DNA of 56,227 nt from positions 1 to 56,227 of the forward strand of contig CASFRI010000033.1 in NCBI GenBank assembly GCA_949297055.1. Reading direction: 5' to 3'. The translations under genes were made by a program, and so were the position numbers. The stretch is from an uncultured bacterium (GTDB lineage Bacteria; Bacillota_I; Bacilli_A; RFN20; CAG-826). Shown here in pieces: positions 758 to 45,823 of this stretch (its first letter is position 1; every line of letters begins with the position of its first letter). The notes below the pieces were generated by a model, which was given only the letters and a program-made list of their open reading frames with translations, had not been told where the DNA came from and ran no database searches.

Positions 758-2500
758 ATGAAAGAATCACCTGTCACAATCAAAGAAATTGTAGAAGAAA
801 TTGATAGCAAAACGATTTTGTTGCCCGCTATGCAAAGGCAGTTTGTTTGGTCCGAAGATAAGATTATTAACTTATTTGATTCTATTATGAAGGAATACCC
901 TTTTGGGGAATTTATTTTATGGCATATTGAAAATAAGGATAAAATTAAAAAATACCAATTTTATGAATTTGTCAAAGAATATTCTAAAAGAGATAATACT
1001 AAACATAAACGCGCAGGTTCGATAGGCAAAGATTCAATTTATGTTGTGTTAGATGGCCAACAAAGATTAACTTCGCTTTATATTGCGATTAAAGGAAGTT
1101 ATGAAACCATTAAAAAAGGAAAACACAAAAACAAAAATGAAAATTGGAAAAGAAAAAATTTATACATAATTCCTAGCACACCCATCGAAGAGAGAGATGA
1201 CGATAATGAGATTTCATGGAAATTTTGTTTTCTAGATGAAGAAACCGTTGAGGATAAAAATTCTATTGCTAAAAATGATTGGGAAAAATATTACCCTGTG
1301 TCGGATTTTTATAATATGTCTAAAGAAGAATTGAGAGAAAAATTTGACGTTGGACAAATAAGAAAAAATAATAAATATTTAAATGTTTTAGATAATTTAC
1401 GTGTGAAGCTTAACGAGGCAGAAATAATTAAATATGATTCTATTGGAGATAGAAACATTAGTGATATCTTAGAAATCTTTACAAGGATTAATAATGGCGG
1501 AACGAAGCTTGAACCAATTGAATTGCTTTTCTCATACGTTATTACATCGTGGGATGAAGGCAAAGACAAAATTACTCATTTTATTGAAGAAATCAACAGG
1601 GAAGAAATCATTAAGTTAAAGGAAGATTTTGTTATTAAAGCATGTTTATATTTATTAAACAAACCCGCAAGTGCAAAACTAGATTCGTTAACTACAGATA
1701 CAATTGATGAAATTAAAAATAATTGGAGTAAAATAACAGAAGCAATTCGCAATACAATAAAATTCCTAAAAGATCATCTTTACGTAAACGAGGCAATTCG
1801 TTCGTATAATGCTTTACTTCCAATCATTTATTATTACTTCTACAACGGTAATAAAGTAAAAGATAAAGTGGAAAAAGAGTTATATTTATTCTTTGCTATT
1901 TCGCAATTGTTTTCGTTGTTTGGGGCAAACACCACTAATGTATTAGAAACTGTAAGAAAGCACATGTGCAAAAATGAGCAACTAGGAAATCTTAAAGTCG
2001 ATTTTAAGATAAGCGATTTGTACGACATAACATTAGGTGCAAGAATAAACGTATTTAAAATTACCCGCGAGCAAATAAAAAGCCTAGTTGATAAAACTTC
2101 ATATGGAGATAGAAAATTGTGTGCTTTACTAGCGTTTTTACAACCAAATATAAAATTAAACGCTAACGAGTTCGATGTTGATCATGTAATTTCAAAAAAA
2201 CAAATTAGCAAAATATGTAGATACAATTCTGACTCAAAAGCAAGAGCTGACCAAATCAAAAATAAAATATCTAATTTACAATTACTTCAATATCAAGAAA
2301 ACAGAGGGGATAAAAACGACGCCAATCTATATCACTGGGTAGTTGAATTAGGTAATAAAATTCCGTTTGATCCATATGAAAACGATCATGATCCTGAGCT
2401 TTATGAAATTGAGAATATTGATCAGTTTGAAAACTTCTTTACCAAAAGGCGTGATTTAATTATTAATTATTTATGTGAGAAACTAAATGTTAAAGAATAA
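758..2500 (+). CDS. DUF262 (ParB-like NTPase) plus DUF1524 (His-Me finger) protein, GmrSD-like type IV restriction candidate
   Basis: N-terminal LLPAMQRQFVW and DGQQRLTSL motifs. C-terminal DVDHVISK...ISNLQLLQYQENRGDKND resembles the H...N...N nuclease motif. AGGAG lies 7 nt upstream of the ATG. Confidence 0.8.
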   Translation: MKESPVTIKEIVEEIDSKTILLPAMQRQFVWSEDKIINLFDSIMKEYPFGEFILWHIENKDKIKKYQFYEFVKEYSKRDNTKHKRAGSIGKDSIYVVLDGQQRLTSLYIAIKGSYETIKKGKHKNKNENWKRKNLYIIPSTPIEERDDDNEISWKFCFLDEETVEDKNSIAKNDWEKYYPVSDFYNMSKEELREKFDVGQIRKNNKYLNVLDNLRVKLNEAEIIKYDSIGDRNISDILEIFTRINNGGTKLEPIELLFSYVITSWDEGKDKITHFIEEINREEIIKLKEDFVIKACLYLLNKPASAKLDSLTTDTIDEIKNNWSKITEAIRNTIKFLKDHLYVNEAIRSYNALLPIIYYYFYNGNKVKDKVEKELYLFFAISQLFSLFGANTTNVLETVRKHMCKNEQLGNLKVDFKISDLYDITLGARINVFKITREQIKSLVDKTSYGDRKLCALLAFLQPNIKLNANEFDVDHVISKKQISKICRYNSDSKARADQIKNKISNLQLLQYQENRGDKNDANLYHWVVELGNKIPFDPYENDHDPELYEIENIDQFENFFTKRRDLIINYLCEKLNVKE

Positions 2501-2825: not shown

Positions 2826-3806
2826 CTAAGGCTTATAATACTTTTGATTTTTGCTAGTTTTTGCTTCCGGGTTCGTAAGTTTAATTAAACCAAGTTCAAG
2901 CGCAGGATTTAAATAATGACGCATGAACGTTAGGCGCGATTTTAACCCTAAATCTTTCATAAGTTCTTTCGCTGATTTAGGATACGTTTTAATTACTTTG
3001 AGTAAATCTCTAATTTGATCGCTTAAATGTTCAACGTAGCTTTTAACGTCTTTTAATAAATCTTTAATCGCTTCATCAATGCACCTTAACATGAAGATAA
3101 TAAATGCATTACAATTACCGTTTTTTGTCGAAAACATAATCGCATGATAATATTCGTCTTGACGTTCTTTTATAACGCTTTCGATCGGAATAAGTGAAAA
3201 AGTCTTTTTCCAGTGCGTTAATAAAGCACTTTGCCAAAATCTTCCCATCCTTCCATTCCCATCCATAAAAGGATGAATAAATTCAAATTCATAATAAAAA
3301 ACGGAAGATTTGATAAGGATGTGCGTCTTAGAGTTATTGAGCCACTCAAATAATTCATATAATTTTTCCTTAGCGATATGATGAGGCGGAGCCATATGAA
3401 CGACATCCCCTAATTCGTTATAAACCCCAACTTCTTTATTTCTTAATTTACCTGCATCTTCCACTAAGGAATGCATCATTATTTCGTGTATTTTTAATAA
3501 TGAATCTAATTCATAAGGATCAATTTGATCTAGGAGTTCATATGCCTTCATAGCATTTTTAACTTCGGTGATGTCTTTTTTATTACCTATTACTTCTAAT
3601 CCATTAATAACATCTCTTACTTCGTCAACATTTAACTGATTATTTTCAATCGCTAAGGAAGCACAGATGGATTTGATGTTACTTACTTTACGTAGTTCAG
3701 GCACACGCTTAAAATTATCGAAATACTTTAAAGTACCTAGTCTTTCCATAATGCTAGAAATGAGCGCAATCATTTCGTCATTTATATCAAATGGTGGCGT
3801 ATACAA
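2826..3806 (-). CDS. Fic family protein (AMPylase-type) with an intramolecular inhibitory motif and a C-terminal wHTH-like tail
   Basis: Fic motif HPFMDGNGRMGR. An upstream SLAIEN matches (S/T)xxxE(G/N). TTG start lies 10 nt after AGGAGG. Confidence 0.85.
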   Translation of the reverse strand: MYTPPFDINDEMIALISSIMERLGTLKYFDNFKRVPELRKVSNIKSICASLAIENNQLNVDEVRDVINGLEVIGNKKDITEVKNAMKAYELLDQIDPYELDSLLKIHEIMMHSLVEDAGKLRNKEVGVYNELGDVVHMAPPHHIAKEKLYELFEWLNNSKTHILIKSSVFYYEFEFIHPFMDGNGRMGRFWQSALLTHWKKTFSLIPIESVIKERQDEYYHAIMFSTKNGNCNAFIIFMLRCIDEAIKDLLKDVKSYVEHLSDQIRDLLKVIKTYPKSAKELMKDLGLKSRLTFMRHYLNPALELGLIKLTNPEAKTSKNQKYYKP

Positions 3807-4025: not shown

Positions 4026-4214
4026 GTGGCTTTAAGAACAGGCCAAGAATTAAATAAAGAAAATATCGCGAGCGCGATTGGTATTAGTGTTAAAACCGTT
4101 GATAATTGGCTTGATATCTTAGAAAAACCTGGTCTTATCATCGATAGCGCTTCAAAAATCACACCTATTAATGAAAAGGCTTATATTTATCCTATCCACC
4201 TCTTAGGAGCGTAG
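4026..4214 (+). pseudogene. Internal fragment of a DUF4143-type ATPase gene
   Basis: LRTGQELNKENIASAIGISVKTVDNWLDILEKPGLI parallels LTGEELIYDKLAKVIGVSLDTIKAWISVLVAGDII of the intact copy. There is no Walker A region and no C-terminal part. Confidence 0.6.
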
Positions 4215-4227
4215 CCCCCTATCTCCA

Positions 4228-5157
4228 CTACTGAATAAACTTATCAATTTTATTTCTAATAAACTTTTTATATTTATCTTTAATGTCTTCATCTAATGGT
4301 GAATGATCGATAATCTTAAACCATTTAGAAGCATCATCAATCATTCTTTCGATTAATAACTTAGATTGAGCTTTATTAATATTCATATATTCACCAAAAT
4401 GGATGAAATCATTTTTCGTAAGATTTTGTCTTTTTCCATTTAATGATAACGCCATTTCTTTTTGATTAATAATAAATTCAGAAGGTACTAGATCGTAGCT
4501 TGGGGCAAGTTTATAACCTTGGCCTTGATTAATTAAAGAAAAATTCTTTAAATGCATATCTGTATTACCTGTCAAATAAGAAAATAAAACGATATTAAAA
4601 AACTTTATTGAATCGATTGTTCTTTGGGAAGAATAAGATAAAGGTAAGCGAAAGCAAAATTCATAAGAGCCATTATATTTATATTCAGTGAGTTTATTTG
4701 ATAATTGACAAAAATCTTCCATCGGATATTTTTTCTTACCATTTCTATCAATTCTTTTCGTTATATAAATATATCTATCATCTTTAACCCTTATAATTGC
4801 ATGAGGTACGACTTCGATGTGAGATGCTTCCGCCATTAACATTAAAGTTTGTTCTAAAAGAACAATGTGGGGGAAACGTTCATCTTCCGTTTTTATTATG
4901 TAGTTTAAACTGCCAATGATTGTAAGTCTATTATTTTTACCTGGCTTAAAAAGGTCTAAAGAGAGTTTTCTTTGAACACCTGTTATTGAGTTTCCACTTC
5001 CTAAAACTTCTTTTGCCAAATTTTCTAATTGTTCTTCTAAAGAAGAAAAATCAGGTAAATTATATGTGCCAAAAAATTTATGAATACATGTATCATGCCA
5101 ATTTGATCTATTATCAGCCAGTAATTCTTTTCCACAGCAAAAACAATATTTATTCAT
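4228..5157 (-). CDS. HipA C-terminal-type Ser/Thr kinase lacking the HipA N-subdomain (HipT-like toxin), with an N-terminal Cys/His cluster
   Basis: Gly-rich loop GNSITGVQRKLSL, catalytic GNTDMHLKNFSL, and APSYDLVPS. The N-terminus reads CFCCGKEL...WHDTCIHKFFG. It overlaps the upstream ORF by 8 nt. Confidence 0.85.
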   Translation of the reverse strand: MNKYCFCCGKELLADNRSNWHDTCIHKFFGTYNLPDFSSLEEQLENLAKEVLGSGNSITGVQRKLSLDLFKPGKNNRLTIIGSLNYIIKTEDERFPHIVLLEQTLMLMAEASHIEVVPHAIIRVKDDRYIYITKRIDRNGKKKYPMEDFCQLSNKLTEYKYNGSYEFCFRLPLSYSSQRTIDSIKFFNIVLFSYLTGNTDMHLKNFSLINQGQGYKLAPSYDLVPSEFIINQKEMALSLNGKRQNLTKNDFIHFGEYMNINKAQSKLLIERMIDDASKWFKIIDHSPLDEDIKDKYKKFIRNKIDKFIQ

Positions 5158-5473
5158 TATTTATTTCCTCAATTGAAACGTTACCAATCACATTTTTACC
5201 GGTTTTAAGTAAGATAGACATACGATCTAAACGATTTAAGTTAAAGTAAGAACACGCTAAATCAAGCAACCATCCTTCGGGAATTAAACCATCAAAGAAA
5301 GGAAATAAATAATTGCTTCTATAAGGTTCTTGTCTTAAAGGTAAGGTTAAAGATATCGCTCTTGCGTTTTCATCTTTTAAATATTCATCAAGATAAGCAA
5401 AAGTAAAACCGTTTTCATCTTGAATAAGGGTGCCTGCCAAAAAATCATCACAATACACATTTGCACTTTTCAT
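5150..5473 (-). CDS. Stand-alone HipA N-terminal subdomain protein (HipS-like)
   Basis: GFTFAYLDEY...ISLTLPL...LFPFFDGLIPEGWLL...GKNVIGNVSI is the Couple_hipA pattern. ATGA overlap with the HTH gene upstream. Confidence 0.8.
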   Translation of the reverse strand: MKSANVYCDDFLAGTLIQDENGFTFAYLDEYLKDENARAISLTLPLRQEPYRSNYLFPFFDGLIPEGWLLDLACSYFNLNRLDRMSILLKTGKNVIGNVSIEEINNE

Positions 5474-5685
5474 TTATTTTTGTCCTCACACTTAATTATT
5501 ACACCTAATTCGCAGTCGAAGAGTCTTAAAACATCGTTTACTTTATCAATTCTTAGCGTTGCTTTGCCGTTTTCTAATTCATTGATGAATTTTGTTGACA
5601 CTCCTGCGTAAAACGCTAAGTCTTCTTGCCTTAGTTTATTCTCTTTGCGTTTTGCTTTGACAAATTCACTTATGTTTTGTTTCAT
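5470..5685 (-). CDS. XRE-family HTH protein (HipB-like)
   Basis: LRQEDLAFYAGVSTKFINELENGK is an HTH_3 pattern. First gene of a three-gene overlapping operon. AGGTGA RBS. Confidence 0.8.
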   Translation of the reverse strand: MKQNISEFVKAKRKENKLRQEDLAFYAGVSTKFINELENGKATLRIDKVNDVLRLFDCELGVIIKCEDKNK

Positions 5686-5697
5686 ATTTTTATCACC

Positions 5698-5810
5698 TAT
5701 CGGTTATTTTATTATTGATATTACAAAAAGACAACACTTTTTTAACTTATCGGTTATTTTTTTTTCTAATTTTAATAAAATCAAAGAAAAATTTAACTAT
5801 CGGTTATTTT
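5698..5810. promoter_or_regulatory. Three identical 13-mers TATCGGTTATTTT spaced exactly 50 bp apart, upstream of the hipB-like gene
   Basis: Copies at 5698..5710, 5748..5760 and 5798..5810. On the minus strand, TTGTCT (5729..5734), a 17-nt spacer and TAAAAT (5706..5711) place copy 1 over the -10 box and start site. Confidence 0.7.
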
Positions 5811-6433
5811 TTATATTCTTTTTCGTACCCCTGCTTATATTCGTCTGGCAAGTATTTAAAAGGAACGTAAAGTATTTCTTTTGATATGTCTAAAGACGCG
5901 AACACAACATTAACGCCTAAATGAAAATTATGAACGCTATTTTTTCTTAAATAAACGCTAGAAACAAAAACGAGATGATTTAAGTTATAAGGTTCAGGTA
6001 TTTCGATATACTTAGCCTCGATATCGTTTCTTGTTAAACATAGATATAAATTTCTTAATTTCTTATCTTTAACTTTTTTTAAAGTTAATAATTCATTTAA
6101 TTTAAAAGCGATATCTTTATATCTAGAAGCATCTTCTTTAAAGTAACGTTCAGGTGAATATAAGACGTAAGTTAACACTAAGTCTTCATCATCTTTATTT
6201 TGTATTTCTCTAAAAGTATAAGCATACGTTAAAGGACTTTTAATTAATTTATTTCTTCGATGATAATCTAGCGTTAAAAAACCTTGAGTCTTTCCTTTAA
6301 AAGAATCTTTTCCAGTTAAAACTTTTTCATCTAATTTAGAAAAACTTATTTTTTGTTTATCGTAATGTTCATTAATTAAATTTAATAAATCTAAATCGTA
6401 ATTCATACCTACAATAATTATATTTAAAGACAT
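5804..6433 (-). CDS. Hypothetical protein with no motif I recognise
   Basis: A 209-codon ORF directly upstream of the hip-like operon on the same strand. No clear RBS at the annotated ATG. Confidence 0.45.
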   Translation of the reverse strand: MSLNIIIVGMNYDLDLLNLINEHYDKQKISFSKLDEKVLTGKDSFKGKTQGFLTLDYHRRNKLIKSPLTYAYTFREIQNKDDEDLVLTYVLYSPERYFKEDASRYKDIAFKLNELLTLKKVKDKKLRNLYLCLTRNDIEAKYIEIPEPYNLNHLVFVSSVYLRKNSVHNFHLGVNVVFASLDISKEILYVPFKYLPDEYKQGYEKEYKK

Positions 6434-9837: not shown

Positions 9838-11241
9838 TTAATCTAGGTTAAACATCGTATTTAAATCGATGAGATGTAATTTATCGTCTTTAACATCTAA
9901 AATTGCATCGTTAAATCCGTTCGCACCAAATAGATAAAATTCGATGTTTTTATATGGTTTAAATATTTCGGCTGTCGAATTTTCAAGCATTCTTTTATAA
10001 TCGCCTAAACCACGTTTTTGTTTAGAAAATTTTGTTTCCGCTATCAAGATATTTTCTTCTGTCGCAGCGACGATATCAATTTCTACTGTCCTTTGTAAAG
10101 TTAGAGATTTAAATGCAAAGCTTTGAAAAGAAGTATAAACATCATTTAATCGCATGTTCTTACTTAAATATTCAAGATAAGTTAAACATAATTTTTCAAA
10201 GGCGTGATTCATAAATTCTTCAATAGCGTTCTTAAGTTTTAATTTGATAGCTTTACCAAATCCGTTTCGAATAAGTTCGCGGTTCGCTCTAATGAAGCGA
10301 TAATAAAACGCTAGCATGGGGTCTAATATCTCATATTTGACGTTTTTACTATTTTGAAAAGAATTTCTTTTGATGATGACATGATCTTCGAGTAATTCTT
10401 TTAAATATTTACTAATTTTAGCACTTTCCGTCATAAGATTTGTGGCTAATTCTTTCACTGAATCATGCCCTTCAGCGATATGGCTGATTAAAGAAGCATA
10501 TAAGCCACTTGTAATAATATTACTAGTGATGACTTTACTTGGGTCATCGATGAAAATGGCGTCGATATTAAAAAATAAATTGTCGAGATTTTCATCGAAA
10601 CTTTTCTTTGGATTGATGAGAGATATGTAATAAGGAAAGGTATTAGTAAGACATAATAATTTAGCTTTTTCTAAGTTGTCTTCGACATCTTTTAAACCTA
10701 ATAAGGCTTCATTAAACTCAAATTTATCTAAACGTAAAGAAAAAGTATTCCTTTGATATAAAGGAGCCTTACTATCGACAATTTCTTTACTAAGAAAGGA
10801 GACGTTAGAGCCCGTTAACACTAAGGTGAATTTCCTTTTGAAAAATAATAAATCGATAGCTTTTTGTAAGTTCGAATCAAAATCAGTTCTTTTCCTTTTC
10901 CCATCTCTTCCTACGATAATATTAGGAAATTCATCTATACAGATGATTGCCTTATCATCACCCACATATTTATCGAGTGCTTGAAAAAAAGTAAACCAAT
11001 TAGGATAAACACCAACGGAACCAGTCACTTCATTTAAGGTAGCAGAAAAAGACTCTAATATATCGATATCAGCGGAATCGGTCGCATAGAAGATTAAGTT
11101 TTTCTTATCTTTAGTAAACATAGACAATAAGGTCGTTTTACCAATACGCCTTTGCCCGTAAATGTAGCCAAATTCAAATGTATCGCTTTCGTAACGTCGA
11201 TTTAATATTTCTAATTCTTTTTTTCGCCCATAAGCTTGCAT
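9838..11241 (-). CDS. ATP-binding protein of the archaeal-ATPase / DUF234 type
   Basis: YGRKKELEIL...IYGQRRIGKTTLL is a Walker A. I moved the start to the ATG at 11241, 5-6 nt after AGAGGTGA. Confidence 0.7.
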   Translation of the reverse strand: MQAYGRKKELEILNRRYESDTFEFGYIYGQRRIGKTTLLSMFTKDKKNLIFYATDSADIDILESFSATLNEVTGSVGVYPNWFTFFQALDKYVGDDKAIICIDEFPNIIVGRDGKRKRTDFDSNLQKAIDLLFFKRKFTLVLTGSNVSFLSKEIVDSKAPLYQRNTFSLRLDKFEFNEALLGLKDVEDNLEKAKLLCLTNTFPYYISLINPKKSFDENLDNLFFNIDAIFIDDPSKVITSNIITSGLYASLISHIAEGHDSVKELATNLMTESAKISKYLKELLEDHVIIKRNSFQNSKNVKYEILDPMLAFYYRFIRANRELIRNGFGKAIKLKLKNAIEEFMNHAFEKLCLTYLEYLSKNMRLNDVYTSFQSFAFKSLTLQRTVEIDIVAATEENILIAETKFSKQKRGLGDYKRMLENSTAEIFKPYKNIEFYLFGANGFNDAILDVKDDKLHLIDLNTMFNLD

Positions 11242-11263
11242 GCATATCACCTCTTTAATTAGA

Positions 11264-20927: not shown

Positions 20928-20935
20928 CGCTATAA

Positions 20936-21024
20936 AAAGTCAAACCACCGCGCATAGAGTGATTACTTAAGGCTGCTATATTCCTATCCTGACCTGGTTC
21001 ATAACCCCTCTATCGCAGTGGCAA
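20936..21024 (-). ncRNA. ffs: Small SRP RNA (4.5S / scRNA type)
   Basis: The minus strand reads ACCAGGUCAGGAUAGGAAUAUAGCAGCC, the domain IV motif. The flanks CCACUGCGAUAGAG and CUCUAUGCGCGGUGG pair. TATAAT lies at 21030..21035. tadA-scr adjacency is known from Bacillus. Confidence 0.85.
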
Positions 21025-21078
21025 GTAATATTATAGATAAAAAGTTTATAATTCGCATTAAAGAAATGTTTTATATAA

Positions 21079-21107
21079 TAAAAAAGTCGCACTGTAGAAA
21101 TGCGACA
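21079..21107 (-). terminator. serS terminator
   Basis: Stem GTCGCA / TGCGAC, followed by T6 on the minus strand. Confidence 0.75.
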
Positions 21108-21145
21108 TAAAATAAAGCATCTATGGGAAGACAAAGTAATGATAC

Positions 21146-22429
21146 TTATTTTTTCTTAAGGAAAATATATTCTTCGCCATTCATGAACGGACGAAGTACT
21201 TCAGGAATTTTAACTGATCCATCAGCTTGTTGATATTGTTCTAGAATTGCCGGGAACACACGAGACGTCGCTAAGCCTGAGCCATTAAGCGTATGCATGA
21301 ACTTATTTTGGCCAGTAGCTTTGTCTTTATATCTCATTTTACCTCTTCTTGCCTGATAATCTCTAGCGTTACTGACACTTGAGACTTCTTTATAAATATC
21401 TAAACTTGGAAAATAAACTTCAATATCGTAGGTTCTTGCCATCGAAGCACTACAATCCGCGGCGGCAAGTTTCGAAACTCGATAATGTAAACCTAATTTA
21501 TCCATTAACGACTTTGCTTTATTAAGTAGTTCTTCAAAAGCACAATTAGAATCTTTTTCGGTCGTATATTGCACCATTTCAACTTTGTTGAATTGATAAC
21601 CTCTAATCGTTCCTCTTTCCACTGATCTATATGAGCCGGCTTCTTTTCTAAAGCAAGGAGTGTAAGCAAAGAATTTTTGAGGTAAATCATCTTCGTTTAA
21701 AATTTCACCGCGGTAATAGTTCACTAATGAAGTTTCGGCTGTAGGAAGTAAGAATTTATGAGGTTCGACGTTTTCGATTAAGAAAACATCGTTTTGGAAT
21801 TTAGGGAATTGACCTGAAACAAGTCCGCTTTCAAGATTTAAAAGCAAAGGTGAAAGTATGAACTTATAACCATCTTTTAAGTGTTCTTGAATGAAGAAAT
21901 TTAAAAGCGCCCATTCAAGTCTTGCCCCGTCTCCGGTATAAAACCAGTTTCCGTGACCCGCCACTTTTACGCCCCTTTCATAGTCAATTAAACCAAGGTT
22001 TTCTTCTAAAGTAACATGATCTAAAACTTTAAAATTAAATGATGGTTTCACACCTCTAACATCGATGACTTGATTGTTTTCTTTTTCACCAGGAAAAAGG
22101 TCATCATCGGGAATGTTTGGTAAGACGATTAAGAAATCGTAAATCTTTTTTTCTAACATTTCTAAATCGCTTCTTTTTTCTTCGATCGCTGTTTTAAGTT
22201 CGCTTACTTGTTTTTTAATTTCTTCTTTTTTAAAAGGATCATCTTTATATTTAGGAAATTCTTTTGATAATCTATTTTGAGCAGCTTGATTTTCTTCGAT
22301 TTCATGAAGTAATTTACGTCTATCTTCATCCATTTTTAAAACGATAGACATATCGACATGACATTCTTTTTTCGCTAAAGCGGCTTCAATTTTTTTTGGG
22401 TTTTCGCGAATGAGATTTAAATCTAACAT
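21146..22429 (-). CDS. serS: Seryl-tRNA synthetase
   Basis: Canonical MLDLNLIRENP N-terminus with class II motifs. I trimmed the track ORF from 22468. Confidence 0.9.
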   Translation of the reverse strand: MLDLNLIRENPKKIEAALAKKECHVDMSIVLKMDEDRRKLLHEIEENQAAQNRLSKEFPKYKDDPFKKEEIKKQVSELKTAIEEKRSDLEMLEKKIYDFLIVLPNIPDDDLFPGEKENNQVIDVRGVKPSFNFKVLDHVTLEENLGLIDYERGVKVAGHGNWFYTGDGARLEWALLNFFIQEHLKDGYKFILSPLLLNLESGLVSGQFPKFQNDVFLIENVEPHKFLLPTAETSLVNYYRGEILNEDDLPQKFFAYTPCFRKEAGSYRSVERGTIRGYQFNKVEMVQYTTEKDSNCAFEELLNKAKSLMDKLGLHYRVSKLAAADCSASMARTYDIEVYFPSLDIYKEVSSVSNARDYQARRGKMRYKDKATGQNKFMHTLNGSGLATSRVFPAILEQYQQADGSVKIPEVLRPFMNGEEYIFLKKK

Positions 22430-22433
22430 GGAG

Positions 22434-23459
22434 TTATTCCTTCTTTCCTTTTTCGCTTTGTGTTTCAATTAAATGTTCGTAATGATTTTTTAAGAAAATT
22501 CCTAATTTTTCTAAAGGTTCACTAATGGCGATTTCATAAGCTTTATCAACCGTACTAGGAATTTCTTTATTTAAAAATTTAGTTAAGGTATTAATTAGAT
22601 CCATGCCTGAAAGGCATACATAACCTGTCACACCATCAATTATTTCATCTTTAAAGATAGTTTTATTTAGGGCGATGATTTGTGTTTTCGAGGCCATTGC
22701 ATCCATTAAAGTAACGACGCCAGACATCGTATAACCAGGTAAAATGTAGGCTAAGGCATTCATCATTCCTGAACGATAAACATCATCAGGAATTAAAGGG
22801 TTAAAATAAGTGTTTTTTGGCTTTCTTCTCAACAATTTTTTAACAAGCCTTGGTAAGGAGAACCACTTCTTTGATTGACCAAAGAAATAAAAATCTACTT
22901 CCGGGAATCTTTTCGCTACTTGGACGAATGTTTCAACAGCGTCAGGGTTATCATATTCCCCTGTGCAAATGATCATTTCTTTGCTCGGCTCTCTTTGGAA
23001 ATAACGCCAGAACAATTCTTTTTCGATATCTCTATCGAATTTGAATCTAGCTTGGTTGACAGCGCAAGGACAAGTAACAATTGTTGCTTCCACTCCTTCG
23101 TCTTTTAAAAACGCTTTTGCCCCGTCGGAAGGAACAAAAATTAAAGAAGCATAATTAAGTGCTTTTAAGGCGCTTGGAATAAGATGAGGGATGCCAGTCG
23201 ACTTATCAATGTAACGGGCTAATGGGTCACCTTCAGTATAAAGAGCGCTATAAACAACTGGGATGTTATTAAATTTAGCATTTTCAGCAATAGCAAAGTC
23301 AAGCGGAGAAATAAGATGAACGATATCGTAATCATCGCTCGTATCTAAGCTATATTCTACTTCCAAGCGATTTAAAGCTCCGACGATAGTCTTTCTAAGA
23401 CGATCGCCTTCAAAATTTGCTTTATGTTTTTCGCTTGGGAAGTAGACTAAAACTTTCAT
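22434..23459 (-). CDS. Glycosyltransferase (GT-B, GT4-like)
   Basis: General GT4-like layout with a C-terminal E-x7-E-like region. This is a weak motif-level call. Confidence 0.5.
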   Translation of the reverse strand: MKVLVYFPSEKHKANFEGDRLRKTIVGALNRLEVEYSLDTSDDYDIVHLISPLDFAIAENAKFNNIPVVYSALYTEGDPLARYIDKSTGIPHLIPSALKALNYASLIFVPSDGAKAFLKDEGVEATIVTCPCAVNQARFKFDRDIEKELFWRYFQREPSKEMIICTGEYDNPDAVETFVQVAKRFPEVDFYFFGQSKKWFSLPRLVKKLLRRKPKNTYFNPLIPDDVYRSGMMNALAYILPGYTMSGVVTLMDAMASKTQIIALNKTIFKDEIIDGVTGYVCLSGMDLINTLTKFLNKEIPSTVDKAYEIAISEPLEKLGIFLKNHYEHLIETQSEKGKKE

Positions 23460-23468
23460 TTTTACCTC

Positions 23469-26054
23469 TTATTCCGCGGGTTTTTCCGTGGTTTCTTCGT
23501 TTGTAGCGTCACTTTCTTCTTCAATTTCTTCTTCGTGCGGGACGATAGCGACACTAGAAACTTTGCGCTTGTTATCAAGTTGAATGATACGTACACCTTG
23601 CGTATTTCTAGATGCAATACGCACTTGTTCAAGTGGTGTACGGATGATAACACCATTATCGGTGACAACCATCAAATCTTCGTTTCCATTAACCATAGCG
23701 ACACATACAATATTACCAACTTTTTCAGTTGCCTTCAAAGTTTTAACACCTTTTGTGCCGCGATTAGTCATACGGTATTCATCAAATGAAGTCATCTTAC
23801 CATAACCATTTTCAGATAAGACGAGGACTAAATTTCCTTCTTCATTAGTGATTGCTCCAATACATTCTCCACCATCAGTGTTCATTGCTTTGACGCCGCT
23901 TGCGGTTCTACCCATCGCTCTTGCGTCATTTTCATCGAATTTAACCATTTTGCCAAGGCTAGAAGCAATACCAATAATAGCGGATCCGGAAGTATGTTTA
24001 ACATCAAGTAACATATCATCATCTCTTAAAGAGATGGCAATCTTACCATTTTGTCTAATAGAAAGGAATTCTTCAATCTTTGTACGTTTGATTAAGCCTT
24101 TCTTAGTAATGAAGGAAAGATAAGTTCCTTCACCATAGTGATCAAGAGGAATGATAGCGATTACTTTTTCATTTTCATCTAAATTAATAAGGTTTTGGAT
24201 AGGTAAACCTTTAGATTCTCTACTATAAGCAGGGATTTGATGCGCTCTCATACGATAAACCTTACCTAAGGTTGTAAAGAATAATAAGTCCGTGTGAGTG
24301 ATAGTGTAAACTAAAATCTTCACTGCATCATTTTCATGTGTACGCGTTCCTCTTATACCTTTACCGCCTCTATTTTGCGTATGGAAGGTATCAACTGTTT
24401 GACGTTTCACGTATCCACCAGCGGTCAAAGTGATGACGATATTTTCCACCGGAATTAAGTCTTCATCTTCGATCGTTGATAAGGCATCAGAAATTTCCGT
24501 CTTACGTTCATCTTTATAACGATTCTTAATTTCTTCTAATTCATCGAGAACAACGCCTTGAAGTTTCATTCTATCGCTAAGTAAGTCGCGGTAGTAGGCA
24601 ATATTCTTTTCGAGTTGAATTCTTTCTTGTTTAAGTTTTTCGATTTCGATGCCAGATAATCTTCTTAATGGAAGCGCTAGGATGGCTTGTGTTTGAGCAT
24701 CACTAAAACCAAATCTAGCGATTAAGGTTTTCGCGCTTGCTTCCGCACTTTCACTAGCGACGATAATATCAACCACTTCTTTAATGTTTTCTCTAGCTTT
24801 AAGTAAACCTAAAACAATATGATCTCTTTGTTCATCTTTTCTAAGACGATATTTCGTCCTTCTTTCGATAACTTCGATTTGGAAATTTAAGTATTCTTGT
24901 AATAAATCTTTAATACCTAACACCTTTGGAACATTATTCACTAAGCAAAGGTTAATGATACCGTAAGATACTTGTAACTGTGTGTTTTTATAAAGTTGAT
25001 TTAATAATACTTCTGGGATGATATCTTTTCTTACTTCGATGACTACTCTAATACCTTCGTGGTTAGATTCATCACGAATGTCGGTAATACCATCGATTAT
25101 CTTGTTTTTAACAAGATCAGCAATCTTTTCAATCATCGTCGCTTTGTTAACTTGGTAAGGAATTTCGGTAACGATAATAGATTTTTTACCATTCGCGTGT
25201 TCTTCAATTTCACATTTAGAACGAATGGTAATGGTTCCTTGACCAGTTTCATAAGCTTGTTTGATACCACTTCTTCCTAAAATGATACCGCCAGTTGGGA
25301 AATCCGGCCCATGAATCGAATTAGCCATAATTTCTTCGACGCTTATTTCAGGGTTAAGAGCTACTACGCGAATACCATCGATAATTTCTGCTAGGTTGTG
25401 GGGCGGCATATTTGTAGCCATACCAACTGCGATACCAGAACTACCATTAATTAATAAGTTAGGAATTCTAGAAGGTAAAATAGATGGTTCTCTTTCTGTT
25501 CCATCATAGTTATCGACAAAGTCGATGGTGTCGTCATTAATGTCTCTTACCATCTCTAAAGAGAGTTTGGACATTCTTGCTTCAGTGTAACGCATCGCTG
25601 CCGCTTCATCACCATCGACCGAACCAAAGTTACCATGACCATCAACAAGCATATAACGCATGGAGAAAGGCTGCGCTAATCTAACTAAAGTTGAATAAAT
25701 AGCTGCGTCACCGTGTGGGTGATATTTACCCATGACGTCACCGACGATACGAGCACATTTCTTATAAGGTTTATCAGGAGTAATACCTGATTCATTCATG
25801 CCGAAGATGATACGTCTATGAACTGGTTTTAAACCATCACGCACATCCGGTAAGGCACGAGCGACGATGACGCTCATGGCGTAATCTAAGAAGGAACTTC
25901 TTACTTCTTTAGCGATATCAACATCTACTAAGCCTGGAACAATGCCAGCACTAGCGTCGCCATCATCATTTCCACCCTCTTCGCTTACGGGTGTTTCTTC
26001 TTCTAATTCTTCATCATTTTCTTCGTTGATGATTTTATCTTCTTCTTCAAACAT
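23469..26054 (-). CDS. gyrA: DNA gyrase subunit A, with acidic N- and C-terminal extensions
   Basis: [27 protein letters not shown] and AAMRYTE motifs. Confidence 0.95.
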
Positions 26055-26074
26055 TATTTATTACCACCTTTCTA

Positions 26075-29149
<3,075 letters not shown>

Positions 29150-29163
<14 letters not shown>

Positions 29164-29383
29164 CTTCTTTCAAATGGTAAGTAATTTGGTCGATGACCAC
29201 GTAAGAACAATTGTAGAGTTTCCTACCTCTTCTAGTTTCTTTTTCACCGTCGACTGAAACTTCATGCATCGCTAAGAAAATTTTAGCTTCGCCACCAGAT
29301 TCGATAAGGTCTAATTTTTTGAGCAATTGCCCCAAAGTGAGAAATGGACCTTTAAAGACGATAATTTGCTCTTTTTTATTCAT
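29150..29383 (-). CDS. yaaA: S4-domain RNA-binding protein YaaA
   Basis: A 77-aa ORF between dnaN and recF, as in Firmicutes, with an S4-like sequence. Confidence 0.75.
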
Positions 29384-29414
29384 ATAATAAAAACCCTACG
29401 CAGTAATTATACTA

Positions 29415-29451
29415 AAAATAAAATAAAAAGGGAATAACAATTTATTCCCTT
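29415..29451 (-). terminator. dnaN terminator
   Basis: Stem AGGGAATAA / TTATTCCCT, followed by a T-rich run on the minus strand. Confidence 0.7.
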
Positions 29452-29484
29452 GAATTCGTGAGCTTAAAATCGGCTATTTTTGGC

Positions 29485-30606
29485 TTAATAAACGCGTCTT
29501 GGCGTCACTAATTGGACGATGGAGTCATCTTTAGTGGACTTGACCGCAAAAGGCTTCATTTCGCCTAAAAACGCTAAGATGACATCGGTTGTTCCAGCTG
29601 CCTTGATCGCTTGAGCAGCATAAGAAGAATTAAAACTCACTTCTAGTGGTTCATTTTGATATTGGAAAACGCTAATTTCTTCACTAGCGGAACCGTTTTG
29701 TGAATCTTTAGAAGATACTTCGACGCTCGATTCTGACATTTTTAAAGTGACGATGTTATCTCTTTCTAAAGAAAGAGTTGATACTCTATCCATCGCTGAA
29801 AGTAGCTCTTGCGCATTAATTTCTAAGAAATAATTAAAGCTATTTGGAATGATTGCTTTGGCGTTAGGGAAGTCACCAGCGGCGTATCTAACAGAAACGA
29901 TTGTTTTGCCAAAGACAAACAAAGCTTTTTTAACATCAAAATAAATACGAACGTTTTCTTCACCATCGATTAGTCTTGCTACTTCTTGTGCCATTTTGGC
30001 AGGAACATTTGCAACGAATGATTCACTAGTATCTAAATCGGCTTCAATTCTAGCAAGTCTAAATCCATCTGTAGTAGTGCACGCTAAACGACCATTTACT
30101 GCTTCAAAATTAATAGCAGTAAGAACTGGCCTTTGTTCTTTTGTAGAAGCGGCAAAAGCAACCGTATCCACTAATTTAGAAAACAAAGAAGCTTTCATTC
30201 CAACTTCGACGCCTTTTTCTTCCATATCGAAATCAGGATATTCTTCCGCTCTTGCAGAATTAAGATTAAATCCTGAATTACCATATTTGATTTTAACAAT
30301 TGTTTCATCAAAGATGTCGAACGTTAACGTGTCTCTTTCGCATTTACGAACAATTTCTGTAAGTAAGCGACCATTTACTAACGCTCCACCATACTTGATG
30401 TTACTAATTACCTCTTCACCATTTTCTTTCAATGGAACACTTGTTTTAATTGTTATGTCGTTATTACTCCCTGTAATGTGTAAGCCTTCTTCATCTAATT
30501 CAAGTTTTAAAGAATTAAGAATTGGTAGTGCAACTTTAGAAGAAAGCGCTCTATTAGCAATGTTGAGTGCTTTAAGAAAGACATCTTTTCTTATTGTAAA
30601 TATCAT
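29485..30606 (-). CDS. dnaN: DNA polymerase III beta sliding clamp
   Basis: Full-length DnaN-like sequence immediately downstream of dnaA. Confidence 0.95.
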   Translation of the reverse strand: MIFTIRKDVFLKALNIANRALSSKVALPILNSLKLELDEEGLHITGSNNDITIKTSVPLKENGEEVISNIKYGGALVNGRLLTEIVRKCERDTLTFDIFDETIVKIKYGNSGFNLNSARAEEYPDFDMEEKGVEVGMKASLFSKLVDTVAFAASTKEQRPVLTAINFEAVNGRLACTTTDGFRLARIEADLDTSESFVANVPAKMAQEVARLIDGEENVRIYFDVKKALFVFGKTIVSVRYAAGDFPNAKAIIPNSFNYFLEINAQELLSAMDRVSTLSLERDNIVTLKMSESSVEVSSKDSQNGSASEEISVFQYQNEPLEVSFNSSYAAQAIKAAGTTDVILAFLGEMKPFAVKSTKDDSIVQLVTPRRVY

Positions 30607-30627
30607 ATTATCTCTCCTTCTTTATTA

Positions 30628-30673
30628 TAAATAATAATAATAACGGTTGTGGATTTTGTGGATTTTGTGGAAA
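30628..30673. other. oriC part 2: TAA trinucleotide run, then CGG, then three head-to-tail DnaA-box-like 9-mers
   Basis: TAA x4 at 30632..30643, then CGG, then TTGTGGATT (30647..30655), TTGTGGATT (30656..30664) and TTGTGGAAA (30665..30673). Confidence 0.75.
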
Positions 30674-30749
30674 AATCATTTTCACTACTTTTAAATTTTA
30701 TCACAATATGTTTGCTCTTTGAACAATTTTTATTTTGTTAAAATAACAA

Positions 30750-32105
30750 TTAATGACCAAGGTGCTTTTTAATCTCATCTATCGCTTGTTTTACTGTCGC
30801 ATCATGACGATATTTTTGATCAATTTTTTCCACAGCGGACATCACAGTTGTGTGGTGAGCCCCGCTAAAAATCGTGCCAATTTTAATAAATGGAGTGTCT
30901 AAAATCTCTCTAATTAAATACATTGCAACATGTCTTGCCCAAGAAATTTGAGAAATACGAATTTTTCCAGTTAATTGTGAAGGAGTTAAACGATAATAAT
31001 CCGCGACTTCATTAATAATGGTGGCTTCTGTAATTGTATCACCTTTAGAAGAAGGCCTATTTGCCCCACCTAAAGAATCTAAAGCATCATCAAAAGTAAC
31101 ATGTTGCGATTTTTTAATATTCACACTGTAATAAAGTAAGGAATTAAGTGCCCCTTCAAGTTCACGCACATTAGAAGAATATTGACTTGCTAAATATTGC
31201 AAAGCATCATCATCAAAATTAGAGGTGTCTAAACCAGAAGCAGATATTTTGCTTTTTAAAATAGATACGCATGTTTCAATATTTGGTTTAGTAATGTTAA
31301 CAGTTAAACCAGAAGAAAAACGTGACACGAGACGATCAGGAAGACCTTTTAATTCGCTTGGATAACGATCGCTTGTAATGACGATTTGTTTATTGTTGTT
31401 ATAAAGGGTGTTATAGCAAGAAAAAAACATCTCTTGTGTTTGTTGCTTATTAGCGAGAAATTGCACATCATCTATGAGCAATAAATCCGCAGAATTGATA
31501 TATCCTTTAATATTAGAATCGTCTGATTCTCCCCGCACGGCACGGACAAATTCATCTACGAACACATCCGCGGGTATATATAGAACCTTACGATTTGGGT
31601 TGTTCTTTTTATAGTAATTTCCTATCGCGTGAAGTAGGTGAGTTTTGCCTAATCCAGAATCTGAATAAATAAATAAAGGGTTATACATTTTTCCTGAATT
31701 AGACGCGACTATTAAAGCCGCTTGTTGAGCTTCTTTATTAGATGGCCCAACAATAAAATTATCGAAAGTACAATTAGGATTAACTCTTACCCCTGAGAAA
31801 AAAGGTTGTTTATTTTCTTCTACTTTTTTTGCCTTCGCGTTCACTTCTGATTCTAGGATATATTCGATTTCATATTGAGTTTGAGTTTCTTCAAGTAAAA
31901 TTGATTGAACAAAATCTAAATAATTTGTAGAGAGAAGTTGCTTGGCTAAGTTGGATGTCGCTACCACATATAACTTATTATTTTCTAATTTATGCACGTA
32001 CGTAGGAGCGAAGAAAGAACTATAAATGTTAAAATCCACACCATCTTTTACCCTTGCTAAGACACGGTCCCAGATCTGTGTGATTTCTGATATTGTTTTA
32101 TCCAT
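30750..32105 (-). CDS. dnaA: Chromosomal replication initiator DnaA
   Basis: AAA+ GLGKTHLLHA and the C-terminal box-binding domain. The true start is MDKTISE after AAAGGAGA; the track ORF runs on into the DnaA-box array. Confidence 0.95.
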   Translation of the reverse strand: MDKTISEITQIWDRVLARVKDGVDFNIYSSFFAPTYVHKLENNKLYVVATSNLAKQLLSTNYLDFVQSILLEETQTQYEIEYILESEVNAKAKKVEENKQPFFSGVRVNPNCTFDNFIVGPSNKEAQQAALIVASNSGKMYNPLFIYSDSGLGKTHLLHAIGNYYKKNNPNRKVLYIPADVFVDEFVRAVRGESDDSNIKGYINSADLLLIDDVQFLANKQQTQEMFFSCYNTLYNNNKQIVITSDRYPSELKGLPDRLVSRFSSGLTVNITKPNIETCVSILKSKISASGLDTSNFDDDALQYLASQYSSNVRELEGALNSLLYYSVNIKKSQHVTFDDALDSLGGANRPSSKGDTITEATIINEVADYYRLTPSQLTGKIRISQISWARHVAMYLIREILDTPFIKIGTIFSGAHHTTVMSAVEKIDQKYRHDATVKQAIDEIKKHLGH

Positions 32106-32140
32106 GAGATGATCTCCTTTTTGTCTTAACAAAAGAATAG

Positions 32141-32418
32141 CAATTTCCACAATAAAATTAAACAAAAATAAATTAATTTTTATTTTATCCACAAAATTAA
32201 CTTTAAAAAGCCTAGTGTGGATGCGATTTTCCCACAATCCACAACTTTTCATTGTGGATAAAATTGTGGAAAACTTTGTTGTGGATAAATTGTTGTGGAT
32301 TTTGTGGATTGTTTTCCACAATCAAAAATTTTCTTATAAACCGAAAAATTAGTCCTATTCAAAGAATACGAAAATAATTCACAGAGTTTTACACAGTATT
32401 TCACAATCTTGTGGATAA
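32141..32418. other. oriC part 1: DnaA-box array upstream of dnaA
   Basis: Perfect TTATCCACA at 32185..32193. Perfect TGTGGATAA at 32253..32261, 32280..32288 and 32410..32418. One- and two-mismatch boxes at 32265, 32294, 32303, 32312, 32216, 32235 and 32143. Confidence 0.9.
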
Positions 32419-32485
32419 AAAAATTTACCTTGTTTTTAATGGTGGGGGAGGGTCTTATTTAATTAATATCAGCTAATATATTTAT

Positions 32486-32513
32486 TTGACTTTAATTATT
32501 ATTAACTTATATA
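32486..32513 (+). promoter_or_regulatory. Putative rpmH promoter
   Basis: TTGACT (32486..32491), a 16-nt spacer, and TATAAT (32508..32513). Confidence 0.65.
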
Positions 32514-32550
32514 ATCTATATCGCATATTGCACGGAGGACCTGTTAGATT

Positions 32551-32685
32551 ATGAAAAGAACATATCAACCAAGTAAAAGACAACATAAAAACGTAAGTGG
32601 CTTTAGAGCACGTATGGCTACTCCAAACGGTCGTGCGACCTTAGCGAGACGTCGTCAAAAAGGACGCAAAGTTATAAGCGCCTAA
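32551..32685 (+). CDS. rpmH: 50S ribosomal protein L34
   Basis: [44 protein letters not shown], with a GGAGGA RBS. Below the ORF-track length cutoff. Confidence 0.95.
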
Positions 32686-32693
32686 AATTTGAT

Positions 32694-33029
32694 ATGAAGG
32701 CTCTTTATCGTATCAAAGATACGAAAGAATTTAAACAAATCGTTTCAAAAAGAAACAAATTAACATCAAGTAGCTTTATCGTTTATTACCAAAATAAAGC
32801 AAAAGACTTTGCAAGAATTGGTATCGCTACTTCGAAGAAACTAGGTAAAGCTCACATTCGCAACCACATAAGAAGACAAGTAAGAATGATGGCTAAATCA
32901 TTAATTGAAGCAAAACTTAATTTTGATTTAGTGATTGTCATCAAACCTAATTACTTAATTAACAACTACCACACGAATGAATTAGAGTTGTTAAACCTAG
33001 TGCTCAATTCCCTTGGAGGCAAACAATGA
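32694..33029 (+). CDS. rnpA: RNase P protein component
   Basis: Position after rpmH and a basic 111-aa RnpA-like sequence. Confidence 0.9.
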   Translation: MKALYRIKDTKEFKQIVSKRNKLTSSSFIVYYQNKAKDFARIGIATSKKLGKAHIRNHIRRQVRMMAKSLIEAKLNFDLVIVIKPNYLINNYHTNELELLNLVLNSLGGKQ

Positions 33030-34525
33030 ATAAAAAGCTTAAAAGAGTTCTATACGGTGTTGGGGCACTTTTTGGTGTGTTATTAGTGACAGGCTGTACA
33101 GCCTCTTTTTGCTCACCTAAAGATACCGCTTCTATCATGTTTGCTTACGATCAAGGCGTCGTCCGTTACGTCGAAGAAGGAACAGAAGGGGCGATTCAAC
33201 ACGAAGCATATCCAAATCTTTATTACACTACAAGCGTGGAATATAGCCCAACTTTAATGTCGGTTTATACCCAAGCTCAAAATGATAGCATCGTTCAACC
33301 AGTTCTAGATTTCTTTGTTCAAATTGATTTACTTGCTTTAGATGCAATGATTGAACAATATAATAAAGACTTCGTGGAACCTATCACAAATGAACAAGTT
33401 AATTATTCTTTTGTGAATGACGAACTAATTTATAAATTAAAAGATGATGGCGTTACTCGTTACGTTCATTATGGTTACATTAAATTCTTAGGTGAAAATG
33501 ACGAACTTTGGGCCAATTGGGATAAGTGGAGTGCATCTCTTGCAGTCGAACTTGGACCAGAAAATGTTCCTAATATGGATTTTACAAATCTATATAAACG
33601 AACGATGAATAATTATGTCGCTACGACGAGATCTTGTATTTCTATTAATGGCGGTTCTTATGGTTCTTATGGCCCGCAAGGTTCACAAATTGAAGTTGGT
33701 ATTGAAAAGAAAGATTGGGGATATGCTTGGAAAACCGGTCCAATTGAAGGTTTACTTGTTTATCCAGTAGCTTGGTTAGTGGACTTCTTTGCAACTTCTT
33801 TTGGTGCAGGTGGTTGGGGTCAAATCGGAGCGATTTTATTAGTGACTTTAATCATTAGAGGTTTACTCTTACTTTTCACATTTAAATCCACATCTTCACA
33901 AGCAAAGATGCAAGCTATTCAACCAGAACTTGCTAAGATTCAGGCAAAATATCCTAATTCCAAAACTAATCAATATGAAAAGCAACGTCTTGCTCAAGAG
34001 CAAATGGCGCTTTATAAGAAACATAAGATTTCGATGGTTGCACCATTTATAACAATGATTATTCAATTCCCAATCTTCATCGCTGTTTGGGGTGCAATGC
34101 AAGGTGCCGCTATTTTAAGTAGTGATGCAATTTTTGGCCTTAAGTTGTCTGATTCAATTGGTTCAACTTTAATTCAATTTAACGATTGGCATGCTTGGGG
34201 CACGGCTTTCGTCTTAATTATCTTGATGATTGTTGCTCAAATTGTGGCCACTAAACTTCCACAATGGATGCAAAAAAAGAAAATTAAGAAGTTAGCAAGG
34301 CTTGGTAAAAATCCTGCTCAAGCTGCACAAAATAAACAAATGAAATGGATTTCTAACATTATGTTAGTGGTCATCATCTTCATGGGCTTCACTCTTCCTG
34401 CTGCTATGGGTGTCTATTGGTTCGCTGGCGCGCTTATTATGATTGCTCAAACACTTATTATGGACGCTATTATGAAGCATAAAGAAAAGAAGCAAAAAGA
34501 AGCGAAGAAAGGAAAGAAATATTAA
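33026..34525 (+). CDS. yidC: Membrane insertase YidC, lipoprotein form with a large N-terminal extracytoplasmic domain
   Basis: Lipobox LLVTGC, a conserved YidC TM core (PELAKIQAKY...QEQMALYKKHKI), and a basic tail. Confidence 0.9.
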   Translation: MNKKLKRVLYGVGALFGVLLVTGCTASFCSPKDTASIMFAYDQGVVRYVEEGTEGAIQHEAYPNLYYTTSVEYSPTLMSVYTQAQNDSIVQPVLDFFVQIDLLALDAMIEQYNKDFVEPITNEQVNYSFVNDELIYKLKDDGVTRYVHYGYIKFLGENDELWANWDKWSASLAVELGPENVPNMDFTNLYKRTMNNYVATTRSCISINGGSYGSYGPQGSQIEVGIEKKDWGYAWKTGPIEGLLVYPVAWLVDFFATSFGAGGWGQIGAILLVTLIIRGLLLLFTFKSTSSQAKMQAIQPELAKIQAKYPNSKTNQYEKQRLAQEQMALYKKHKISMVAPFITMIIQFPIFIAVWGAMQGAAILSSDAIFGLKLSDSIGSTLIQFNDWHAWGTAFVLIILMIVAQIVATKLPQWMQKKKIKKLARLGKNPAQAAQNKQMKWISNIMLVVIIFMGFTLPAAMGVYWFAGALIMIAQTLIMDAIMKHKEKKQKEAKKGKKY

Positions 34526-45672: not shown

Positions 45673-45823
45673 AAAATTTACAAGTCCCACTCTAATGTAA
45701 AATAATTCTTAGATTAAATTGTGTTGACATATATGCGCATAATGTAGTTATATATATTATAAATTCAGGTTAGTTCTATTCGCCTTGAAATTACTAACCA
45801 AAAATATTGGGAGGTCATACAAT

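Follow-up and report, generated by a model that had tools for sequence, protein, structure and literature searches.

The stretch of DNA considered here (the window) comprises the 56,227 nucleotides of contig CASFRI010000033.1, from assembly GCA_949297055.1 of an uncultured bacterium placed in the lineage Bacillota_I, Bacilli_A, RFN20, CAG-826. Its minus strand carries three overlapping open reading frames (ORFs), hipB, hipS and hipT, which are found in the ORF listing at exactly the coordinates given by a first-pass annotation made from the letters alone. That annotation had read them as a module of the HipBST architecture, in which a HipA-type kinase and its N-terminal subdomain are encoded by separate genes, and the gene order, the domain matches and the matches to solved structures all fit this assignment. 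The genes and the features on which the argument depends are as follows.

hipB, 5470..5685, minus strand: 71-aa helix-turn-helix (HTH) DNA-binding protein of the Xre/Cro type; predicted operon autorepressor.
hipS, 5150..5473, minus strand: 107-aa stand-alone HipA N-subdomain 1; predicted antitoxin.
hipT, 4228..5157, minus strand: 309-aa HipA-type Ser/Thr kinase core; predicted toxin.
HipT's N-terminal mini-domain (residues 1-38), 5044..5157, minus strand, with the cluster codons at 5086-5145: a Cys3His cluster followed by KFFG, delimited by alignments and an AlphaFold2 (AF2) model.
Gly-rich loop of HipT, 4966..4989, minus strand: S57-I58-T59-G-V-Q-R-K64, with two candidate autophosphorylation sites placed by alignment.
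Catalytic motif GNTDMHLKNFS (G197-S207, including D200, H202, K204 and N205) and Mg-binding Y221-D222 of HipT, 4492..4569, minus strand: invariant alignment columns.
Promoter and candidate operator region, 5690..5811, minus strand: repeats and a promoter-like site, a putative target of HipB.

The three genes are co-directional and tightly packed in the order hipB, hipS, hipT. A 4-nt overlap, ATGA, joins hipB to hipS (5470-5473) and an 8-nt overlap, ATGAATAA, joins hipS to hipT (5150-5157); both can be read directly from the sequence, as can the protein lengths of 71, 107 and 309 aa that had been reported with them. A ribosome-binding site, GAGGA or GGTGA, is found 8-10 nt 5' of every one of the three starts, and together with the overlaps these sites indicate that translation of hipB, hipS and hipT is coupled. 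The motifs quoted in the first-pass annotation (PEGW, GKNVIGNVSI, GNTDMHLKNFS, S-I-T-G-V-Q-R-K and CFCCGKEL...WHDTCIHKFFG) are all present. Comparison with close relatives gives ratios of non-synonymous to synonymous substitution (dN/dS) of 0.19-0.32, which, although the counts are small, suggest that the module is under purifying selection.

HipT is a kinase core devoid of N-subdomain 1, as had been proposed: the Pfam scan matched HipA_C (4.4e-43) at residues 57-278 and found no Couple_hipA in the kinase. In sequence searches against solved chains, the protein matched HipT of Legionella (1.1e-37), HipT of Escherichia coli O127 (about 1e-9) and HipA (about 1e-7), and in BLASTP the identity was 33.6% with a Legionella HipT (280 aa aligned) and 25% with E. 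coli HipT (263 aa aligned). The AF2 model, built on 23 homologs, is of good quality, with a predicted local distance difference test score (pLDDT) of 86 and a predicted template modelling score (pTM) of 0.88. In Foldseek comparisons it superimposes on full-length Legionella HipT with a template modelling (TM) score of 0.85 (E 7e-22), on E. coli HipT with about 0.80 and on HipA with 0.65-0.7. Residues G60, Q62, K64, K89, D200, H202, K204, N205 and Y221-D222 are invariant in the 23-sequence alignment, and the catalytic, Mg-binding and Gly-rich motifs all align with their equivalents in both HipT proteins and in HipA.

The Gly-rich loop deserves separate mention. The annotation had placed its S-I-T at the position of the doubly autophosphorylated S-I-S of HipT, and the correspondence proves to be residue for residue, with the same numbering: S57-I-T59 aligns with S57-I-S59 of E. 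coli HipT, while the Legionella counterpart is S54-V-Q. Its sequence assigns the loop to the (S/T)-aliphatic-T class, known from earlier work on HipT orthologues (PMC10627512). By analogy with these proteins, S57 and T59 are probable autophosphorylation sites that would adjust the balance between toxicity and neutralisation.

HipS is, by sequence, a protein of about 100 aa homologous to N-subdomain 1 of HipA, in agreement with the original reading of this ORF as a stand-alone subdomain. It matches Couple_hipA in Pfam (6.7e-25), the solved HipS chains of Haemophilus influenzae (7czo, 2.6e-15), Legionella (7vkb_B, 2.7e-13) and E. coli (7ab4_B, 3e-12), and residues 14-103 of HipA at about 1e-6; the corresponding structural comparison through AF2 failed (pLDDT 41). 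The PEGW motif occupies P65-W68, with the W68 codon at 5270-5272, and is kept in 76 of 77 related HipS proteins. In the alignment, E66 and W68 fall on Glu63 and Trp65 of E. coli HipS, and it is this Trp65, the inhibitory residue, that has been shown to wedge beside the Gly-rich loop of the kinase. The expectation that the Trp of PEGW is the inhibitory one is thus borne out at the level of alignment.

The first gene of the operon encodes an HTH protein that matches HTH_3 in Pfam (1.3e-10), so that the three families named for checking, HipA_C, Couple_hipA and HTH_3, are all present, as well as TIGR03070 couple_hipB in NCBIfam (2.6e-20, just above the cut-off of that family) and the solved Legionella HipB 8ezt (E 1.6e-4). 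Since NCBIfam naming puts it in the couple_hipB/Y4mF antitoxin family, and since HipB neutralises HipA in two-gene HipBA systems (PMC8262856), HipB could be the real antitoxin here too, with HipS serving as a detached lid needed for kinase activity. We consider this very unlikely. In both HipBST systems tested experimentally the antitoxin is HipS and not HipB (PMC6581861; PMC9325769; PMC10653801), the HipB of the window, with its 71 aa, lacks at its C-terminus a Trp or any other aromatic residue of the type suggested to enter HipA (PMC10627512), and the inhibitory Trp is retained in HipS.

The most distinctive part of the module is the N-terminus of HipT, where C5-x2-C8-x12-H21-x2-C24 is followed by K-F-F-G. 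Among 23 diverse homologs, no substitution of C5, C8 or C24 occurs, and conservation of H21 reaches at least 90%. A wider search retrieved 7185 kinase homologs at E values up to 1e-10; the 120 best proteins and the 80 best genome loci were examined. The pattern C-x2-C...[H/C]-x2-C precedes the Gly-rich loop in 118 of these 120 proteins (41-97% identity), the two exceptions being N-terminally truncated, and in 77 of the 80 loci, the other 3 being cut or frameshifted; the zinc-finger ligand pattern is therefore kept in 195 of 200 sequences. The only replacement of H21 that was seen is Cys, in the closest 293-aa relatives (WCDSC), a swap that is typical of metal ligands. Two flavours of the cluster can be distinguished: CLCCGK...GWHxxC, mostly in Firmicutes and spirochaetes, and CLYCYxxL...DFHxxC, mostly in Bacteroidota. 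Because the cluster is conserved in nearly all close homologs, it is not special to this locus.

Its shape had been described as zinc-ribbon-like. The Cys/His cluster is real, but AF2 gives for residues 1-30 (pLDDT 84-90) a beta bridge 4/11 around CxxC and a helix spanning residues 22-29 and starting at H21, and such a CxxC knuckle with a helix appears more like a treble clef than a true zinc ribbon. Three N-terminal peptides matched no Pfam family at E values up to 10, and a PDB sequence search with the first 66 residues of HipT returned chance matches alone. Homology to the N-terminus of E. coli HipT emerged only with a full-length profile, which puts the N-terminus of the window HipT on E. 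coli residues 7-30; MAFFT gives the same register. The claim that the cluster is an extra module absent from E. coli HipT therefore does not hold, as the profile aligns it inside the published E. coli mini-domain, residues 1-41, which is listed as of "unknown significance" (eLife 2023). What differs is the set of ligands: where the window HipT has C8, H21 and C24, that of E. coli has L7, S21 and G24. A search seeded with Legionella HipT retrieved 120 sequences of the Legionellales type, all beginning MKRCPITY...NYSQRGLxLLSP and none carrying the ligand set. E. coli and Legionella HipT thus share a form, C-x-I-T...Y-S-x-x-G-L, in which three ligands out of four are missing.

A profile of the mini-domain by itself, run against 1.84 billion representative proteins, matched 455 clusters (50% identity) at E values up to 0.001, and wherever this could be assessed the match lies at the N-terminus of HipT-like kinases or their fragments. 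Occurrence of the mini-domain on other architectures was considered and rejected, the short matches being contig-edge fragments or adapter and frameshift artefacts. One 427-aa protein (P0289) has a HipS-like N-terminus running into a Cys3His mini-domain and kinase; it was not accepted as a true hipS-hipT fusion, as the sequence of the junction suggests frameshifted read-through of overlapping hipS and hipT.

Judging from the ligand pattern and the model, the Cys3His cluster is most likely a site for a single structural zinc ion. Neither zinc nor cysteine ligands in HipT were mentioned in the key HipBST and Hip papers or in full-text literature searches. Two other accounts of the cluster have to be weighed. 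According to the first, it binds no metal and is a conserved hydrophobic or disulfide feature, or the module as a whole is a decaying remnant. The mini-domains of E. coli and Legionella lack three of the four ligands and are nevertheless both resolved in crystals, that of Legionella only in free HipT, which indicates that the mini-domain can exist without metal; moreover, AF2 models carry no metal. However, the classic CxxC...HxxC spacing is kept across phyla with only Cys replacing His, which is the signature of metal ligands, and intracellular disulfides are unlikely. Decay is difficult to reconcile with ORFs and catalytic motifs that are all intact and with a 97% identical copy in another sample, and we regard this account as quite unlikely. 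The second accepts the metal and would make the mini-domain, which directly precedes the Gly-rich loop, a regulatory element: either a zinc- or redox-sensitive switch or a part that recognises the target. The Legionella mini-domain is ordered in free HipT and becomes disordered once HipS is bound (PMC10627512), so that its folding state appears coupled to antitoxin binding. If the metal form were regulatory, oxidation or loss of zinc could release HipS or alter substrate choice, and throughout the large clade of HipBST systems outside Proteobacteria the kinase might become active under oxidative or metal stress, or upon phage infection. Such a role is unlikely, and we favour a structural zinc.

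The region 5' of hipB contains three perfect copies of AAATAACCGATA, at 5698-5709, 5748-5759 and 5798-5809, spaced at exactly 50 bp (in the fragment 5690-5811 the repeats are also given as ATAACCGATA). The same sequence occurs only once elsewhere in the whole window, with a mismatch, and L081, the 97% identical locus, has kept the repeats. An imperfect inverted half comes after each copy (TAACC-GATA-GGTGA, -AGTTA and -GTTAA). A promoter-like site, TTGTCT-17-TAAAAT, lies at 5734-5706, and its -10 hexamer borders on the proximal repeat. Among relatives from several phyla, 60 of 75 have 1-4 copies of TATACC-N6-GGTATA within 200 nt 5' of hipB, compared with a background of 4 matches in 537 kb, and 68 of 76 neighbouring pairs are spaced at 40-42 bp. 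Regular operator arrays occur among loci L003-L080 (e.g. L042, L045, L068 and L077), and variants include three copies of TACCCGAGCGGGTATA (L029), three copies of TTCCCGATCGGGAA (L020) and two copies of TTATACCCGATAGG at 51 bp (L056, L066). The family consensus was also sought in the window and rejected, as no match with up to 2 mismatches was found near the locus; the repeats of the window seem to be a diverged form of such an array. HipB would bind them, as may be expected from the HipB-dependent repression demonstrated for hipBST of E. coli. A 209-aa ORF on the minus strand (5804-6433) ends inside the first operator-like repeat.

The kinase and its synteny are widely distributed. The 80 best loci come from Bacteroidota, Clostridia, Bacilli, metagenome-assembled genomes labelled "Mollicutes", Spirochaetes, Chlorobium, Riflebacteria and one methanogen, an archaeon. 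In about 75 of them a HipS homolog lies directly 5' of the kinase with a HipB homolog before it, stop and start usually overlapping. HipBST systems resembling that of Legionella have already been reported as widespread outside Gammaproteobacteria, especially in the FCB (Fibrobacteres-Chlorobi-Bacteroidetes) group (PMC10653801), and in agreement with that report the window locus is a typical member of a large recognised clade. The suggestion of a possibly distinct subfamily is accordingly abandoned in favour of ordinary membership in a very large, multi-phylum clade. When a neighbour-joining tree is rooted on E. coli HipT, the ligand-bearing clade and the Legionella group come out as sisters. 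The published set of 48 HipTs probably includes members of the zinc type, to judge from the T[IV][TP] loop group that has been published.

Two relatives are especially close. The kinase locus of L081, from another sample, is 97% identical. In L001 (2045-4882) the genomic neighbourhood is the same and the kinase 76% identical, hipB is absent, a 193-aa ORF without recognised domain stands directly 5' of hipS, and next to this ORF is a divergent HTH gene of 127 aa. The L001 kinase has 293 aa, with 16 residues deleted immediately behind the Gly-rich loop (GVQKKILHSNYVIKFN), and carries Cys in place of H21; the same short form is found in P0002-P0006.

The window is chromosomal and covers the region of the replication origin, with dnaA, dnaN, recF, gyrB, gyrA, serS, the signal recognition particle (SRP) RNA, yidC, mnmE and a GlmU-like gene. 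The origin region extends over 20932-34525, with the SRP RNA at 20932-21029 and dnaA at 30750-32321; the minus strand encodes serS, gyrA, gyrB, recF, dnaN and dnaA, the plus strand yidC, and the cumulative GC-skew minimum lies near 30-32 kb. Long ORFs remain intact under translation table 11, so that UGA is read as a stop codon. With a standard code, long intact ORFs, a GlmU-like gene and oriC in the window, the idea of a wall-less host is unsupported. An ORF of 1100 aa on the plus strand (45785-49087) has no Pfam match at E values up to 1e-5 and a locally higher GC content (0.40).

The module itself lies in a stretch of lower GC content than its flanks, with neighbours of the defence type:

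GmrSD-like gene, 758-2500, plus strand: PADLOC HEC-05, 1.7e-130.
Fic gene, 2826-3806, minus strand: SoFic, 6e-43.
62-aa DUF4143 fragment, 4026-4214, plus strand: has the look of a gene remnant.
ATPase_2/DUF234 protein, 9838-11250, minus strand, further from the module: PDC-S27, 8.7e-52.

For the 209-aa ORF 5' of hipB no match was obtained in Pfam, PHROGs or PADLOC, and its conservation is limited to two close relatives, L001 and L081. Neither this ORF nor the Fic gene was retained as part of the module, as they accompany it only in L001 and, by gene content, in L081.

This setting raises the question whether the module serves mainly in abortive-infection defence, a phage releasing or activating HipT and thereby shutting down translation. 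The small variable islet with its GmrSD-like, Fic and PDC-S27 genes, the genes 3' of hipT that differ between the window, L081 and L001, the dip in GC content at the module and weak matches of the kinase and HipS to PDC-M03A/B all point in this direction. On the other hand, the PADLOC matches of the Hip proteins are weak (1e-8, 2e-5) and partial, no defence phenotype of HipBST was found in the HipBST literature examined, and toxin-antitoxin modules commonly co-locate with defence genes. A mainly defensive role is rather unlikely; it is also compatible with the toxin-antitoxin interpretation that we prefer, and not an alternative to it.

Considered together, these observations make it very probable that hipB, hipS and hipT form a functional tripartite toxin-antitoxin operon of type II and of the HipBST kind. 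The mechanistic roles that may be assigned to its products are drawn from work on other systems (PMC6581861; PMC10627512; PMC9325769; PMC10653801). Free HipT would act as a toxin by phosphorylating an essential cellular protein, by analogy most likely an aminoacyl-tRNA synthetase, and thus cause growth arrest. HipS, the N-subdomain 1 that is missing from the kinase when compared with HipA, would bind the kinase N-lobe and neutralise it by means of Trp68 beside the Gly-rich loop, and phosphorylation at S57 and T59 would tune both toxicity and neutralisation. A dimer of the short HTH protein HipB would bridge two HipS-HipT pairs and repress the operon via the three repeats that flank and abut the promoter. 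In the Cys3His cluster, zinc would rigidify the mini-domain just before the Gly-rich loop.

Several points weigh against this scheme. In the closest solved relative of the module, from Legionella, HipS has no Trp, neutralisation differs in detail and the target is neither TrpS nor GltX, which give no rescue, so that the E. coli mechanism can be expected to transfer only partially. The case for metal binding comes down to a pattern in the sequence and an AF2 model that contains no metal. For HipS, modelling by AF2 from a single sequence gave a poor result, and the fold is assigned through the matches to solved HipS chains. Finally, the three repeats are poor palindromes in their right halves, and the window has no copy of the family consensus operator.

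The locus itself is ordinary, and its interest lies in a conserved, probably metal-binding form of the HipT mini-domain. Both best-studied HipBST systems, those of E. coli O127 and Legionella, carry the ligand-less mini-domain, which leaves a gap in the study of HipBST, and no experiments on the four-ligand form were found in the literature searched. This form occurs in Bacteroidota, Clostridia, Bacilli, Spirochaetes and others, and raises the question whether it is a structural brace or a regulatory element. In addition, the regular operator arrays 5' of hipB offer an easy system in which to study how HipB and the HipST complex read DNA.

Four known systems come closest to the module. One of these is the PADLOC candidate defence system PDC-M03, in which A is a HipA_C-like kinase and B a protein whose N-terminus is HipS-like. 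It shares the separation of kinase and HipS-like protein, but the matches are weak and partial as noted above, the B model has 245 positions and the match includes no HipB-type gene. HipBA-type systems have the kinase fold and catalytic motifs in common with the module, HipS being equivalent to a segment of HipA. Their HipB, an HTH protein, represses by way of repeated palindromic operators, a role predicted for the HipB of the window too. In contrast, HipA combines N-subdomain 1 and kinase in one chain of about 440 aa and has no mini-domain, and the antitoxin there is HipB.

The HipBST system of E. coli O127:H6 (PDB 7ab3, 7ab4 and 7ab5) is likewise tripartite, with HipS as an antitoxin that inserts Trp65 (here W68), and its HipT has the dual Ser/Thr loop with identical numbering and a mini-domain whose residues 1-41 can be aligned to residues 1-38 of the window HipT. 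E. coli HipT differs in its low identity (25%), in larger loop insertions and in the residues that replace C8, H21 and C24, and E. coli HipB has at its N-terminus 35 further residues without counterpart in the window HipB. TrpS has been shown as a target only for E. coli-type kinases.

The Legionella pneumophila system (Lpg2368-2370; PDB 7vkb, 7vkc, 7wcf, 8ezr and 8ezt) has the same gene order with overlapping ORFs and a short HipB (72 aa vs 71 aa here), its HipS and HipT measuring about 100 and about 310 aa, and this HipT is the best match of the window kinase both in sequence (1.1e-37) and in structure (TM 0.85). It differs in its mini-domain, MKRCPITY...YSQRGL, which lacks three of the four ligands, and in a Gly-rich loop, S-V-Q, with one phospho-site; Legionella HipS has Ile where the window protein has Trp68. 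The Legionella protein has been reported as a Dot/Icm effector, and the toxicity of Legionella HipT is not rescued by TrpS or GltX. With a HipT core and short HipB that resemble those of Legionella, and a HipS Trp and dual Ser/Thr loop that resemble those of E. coli, the locus in the window mixes features of both systems.

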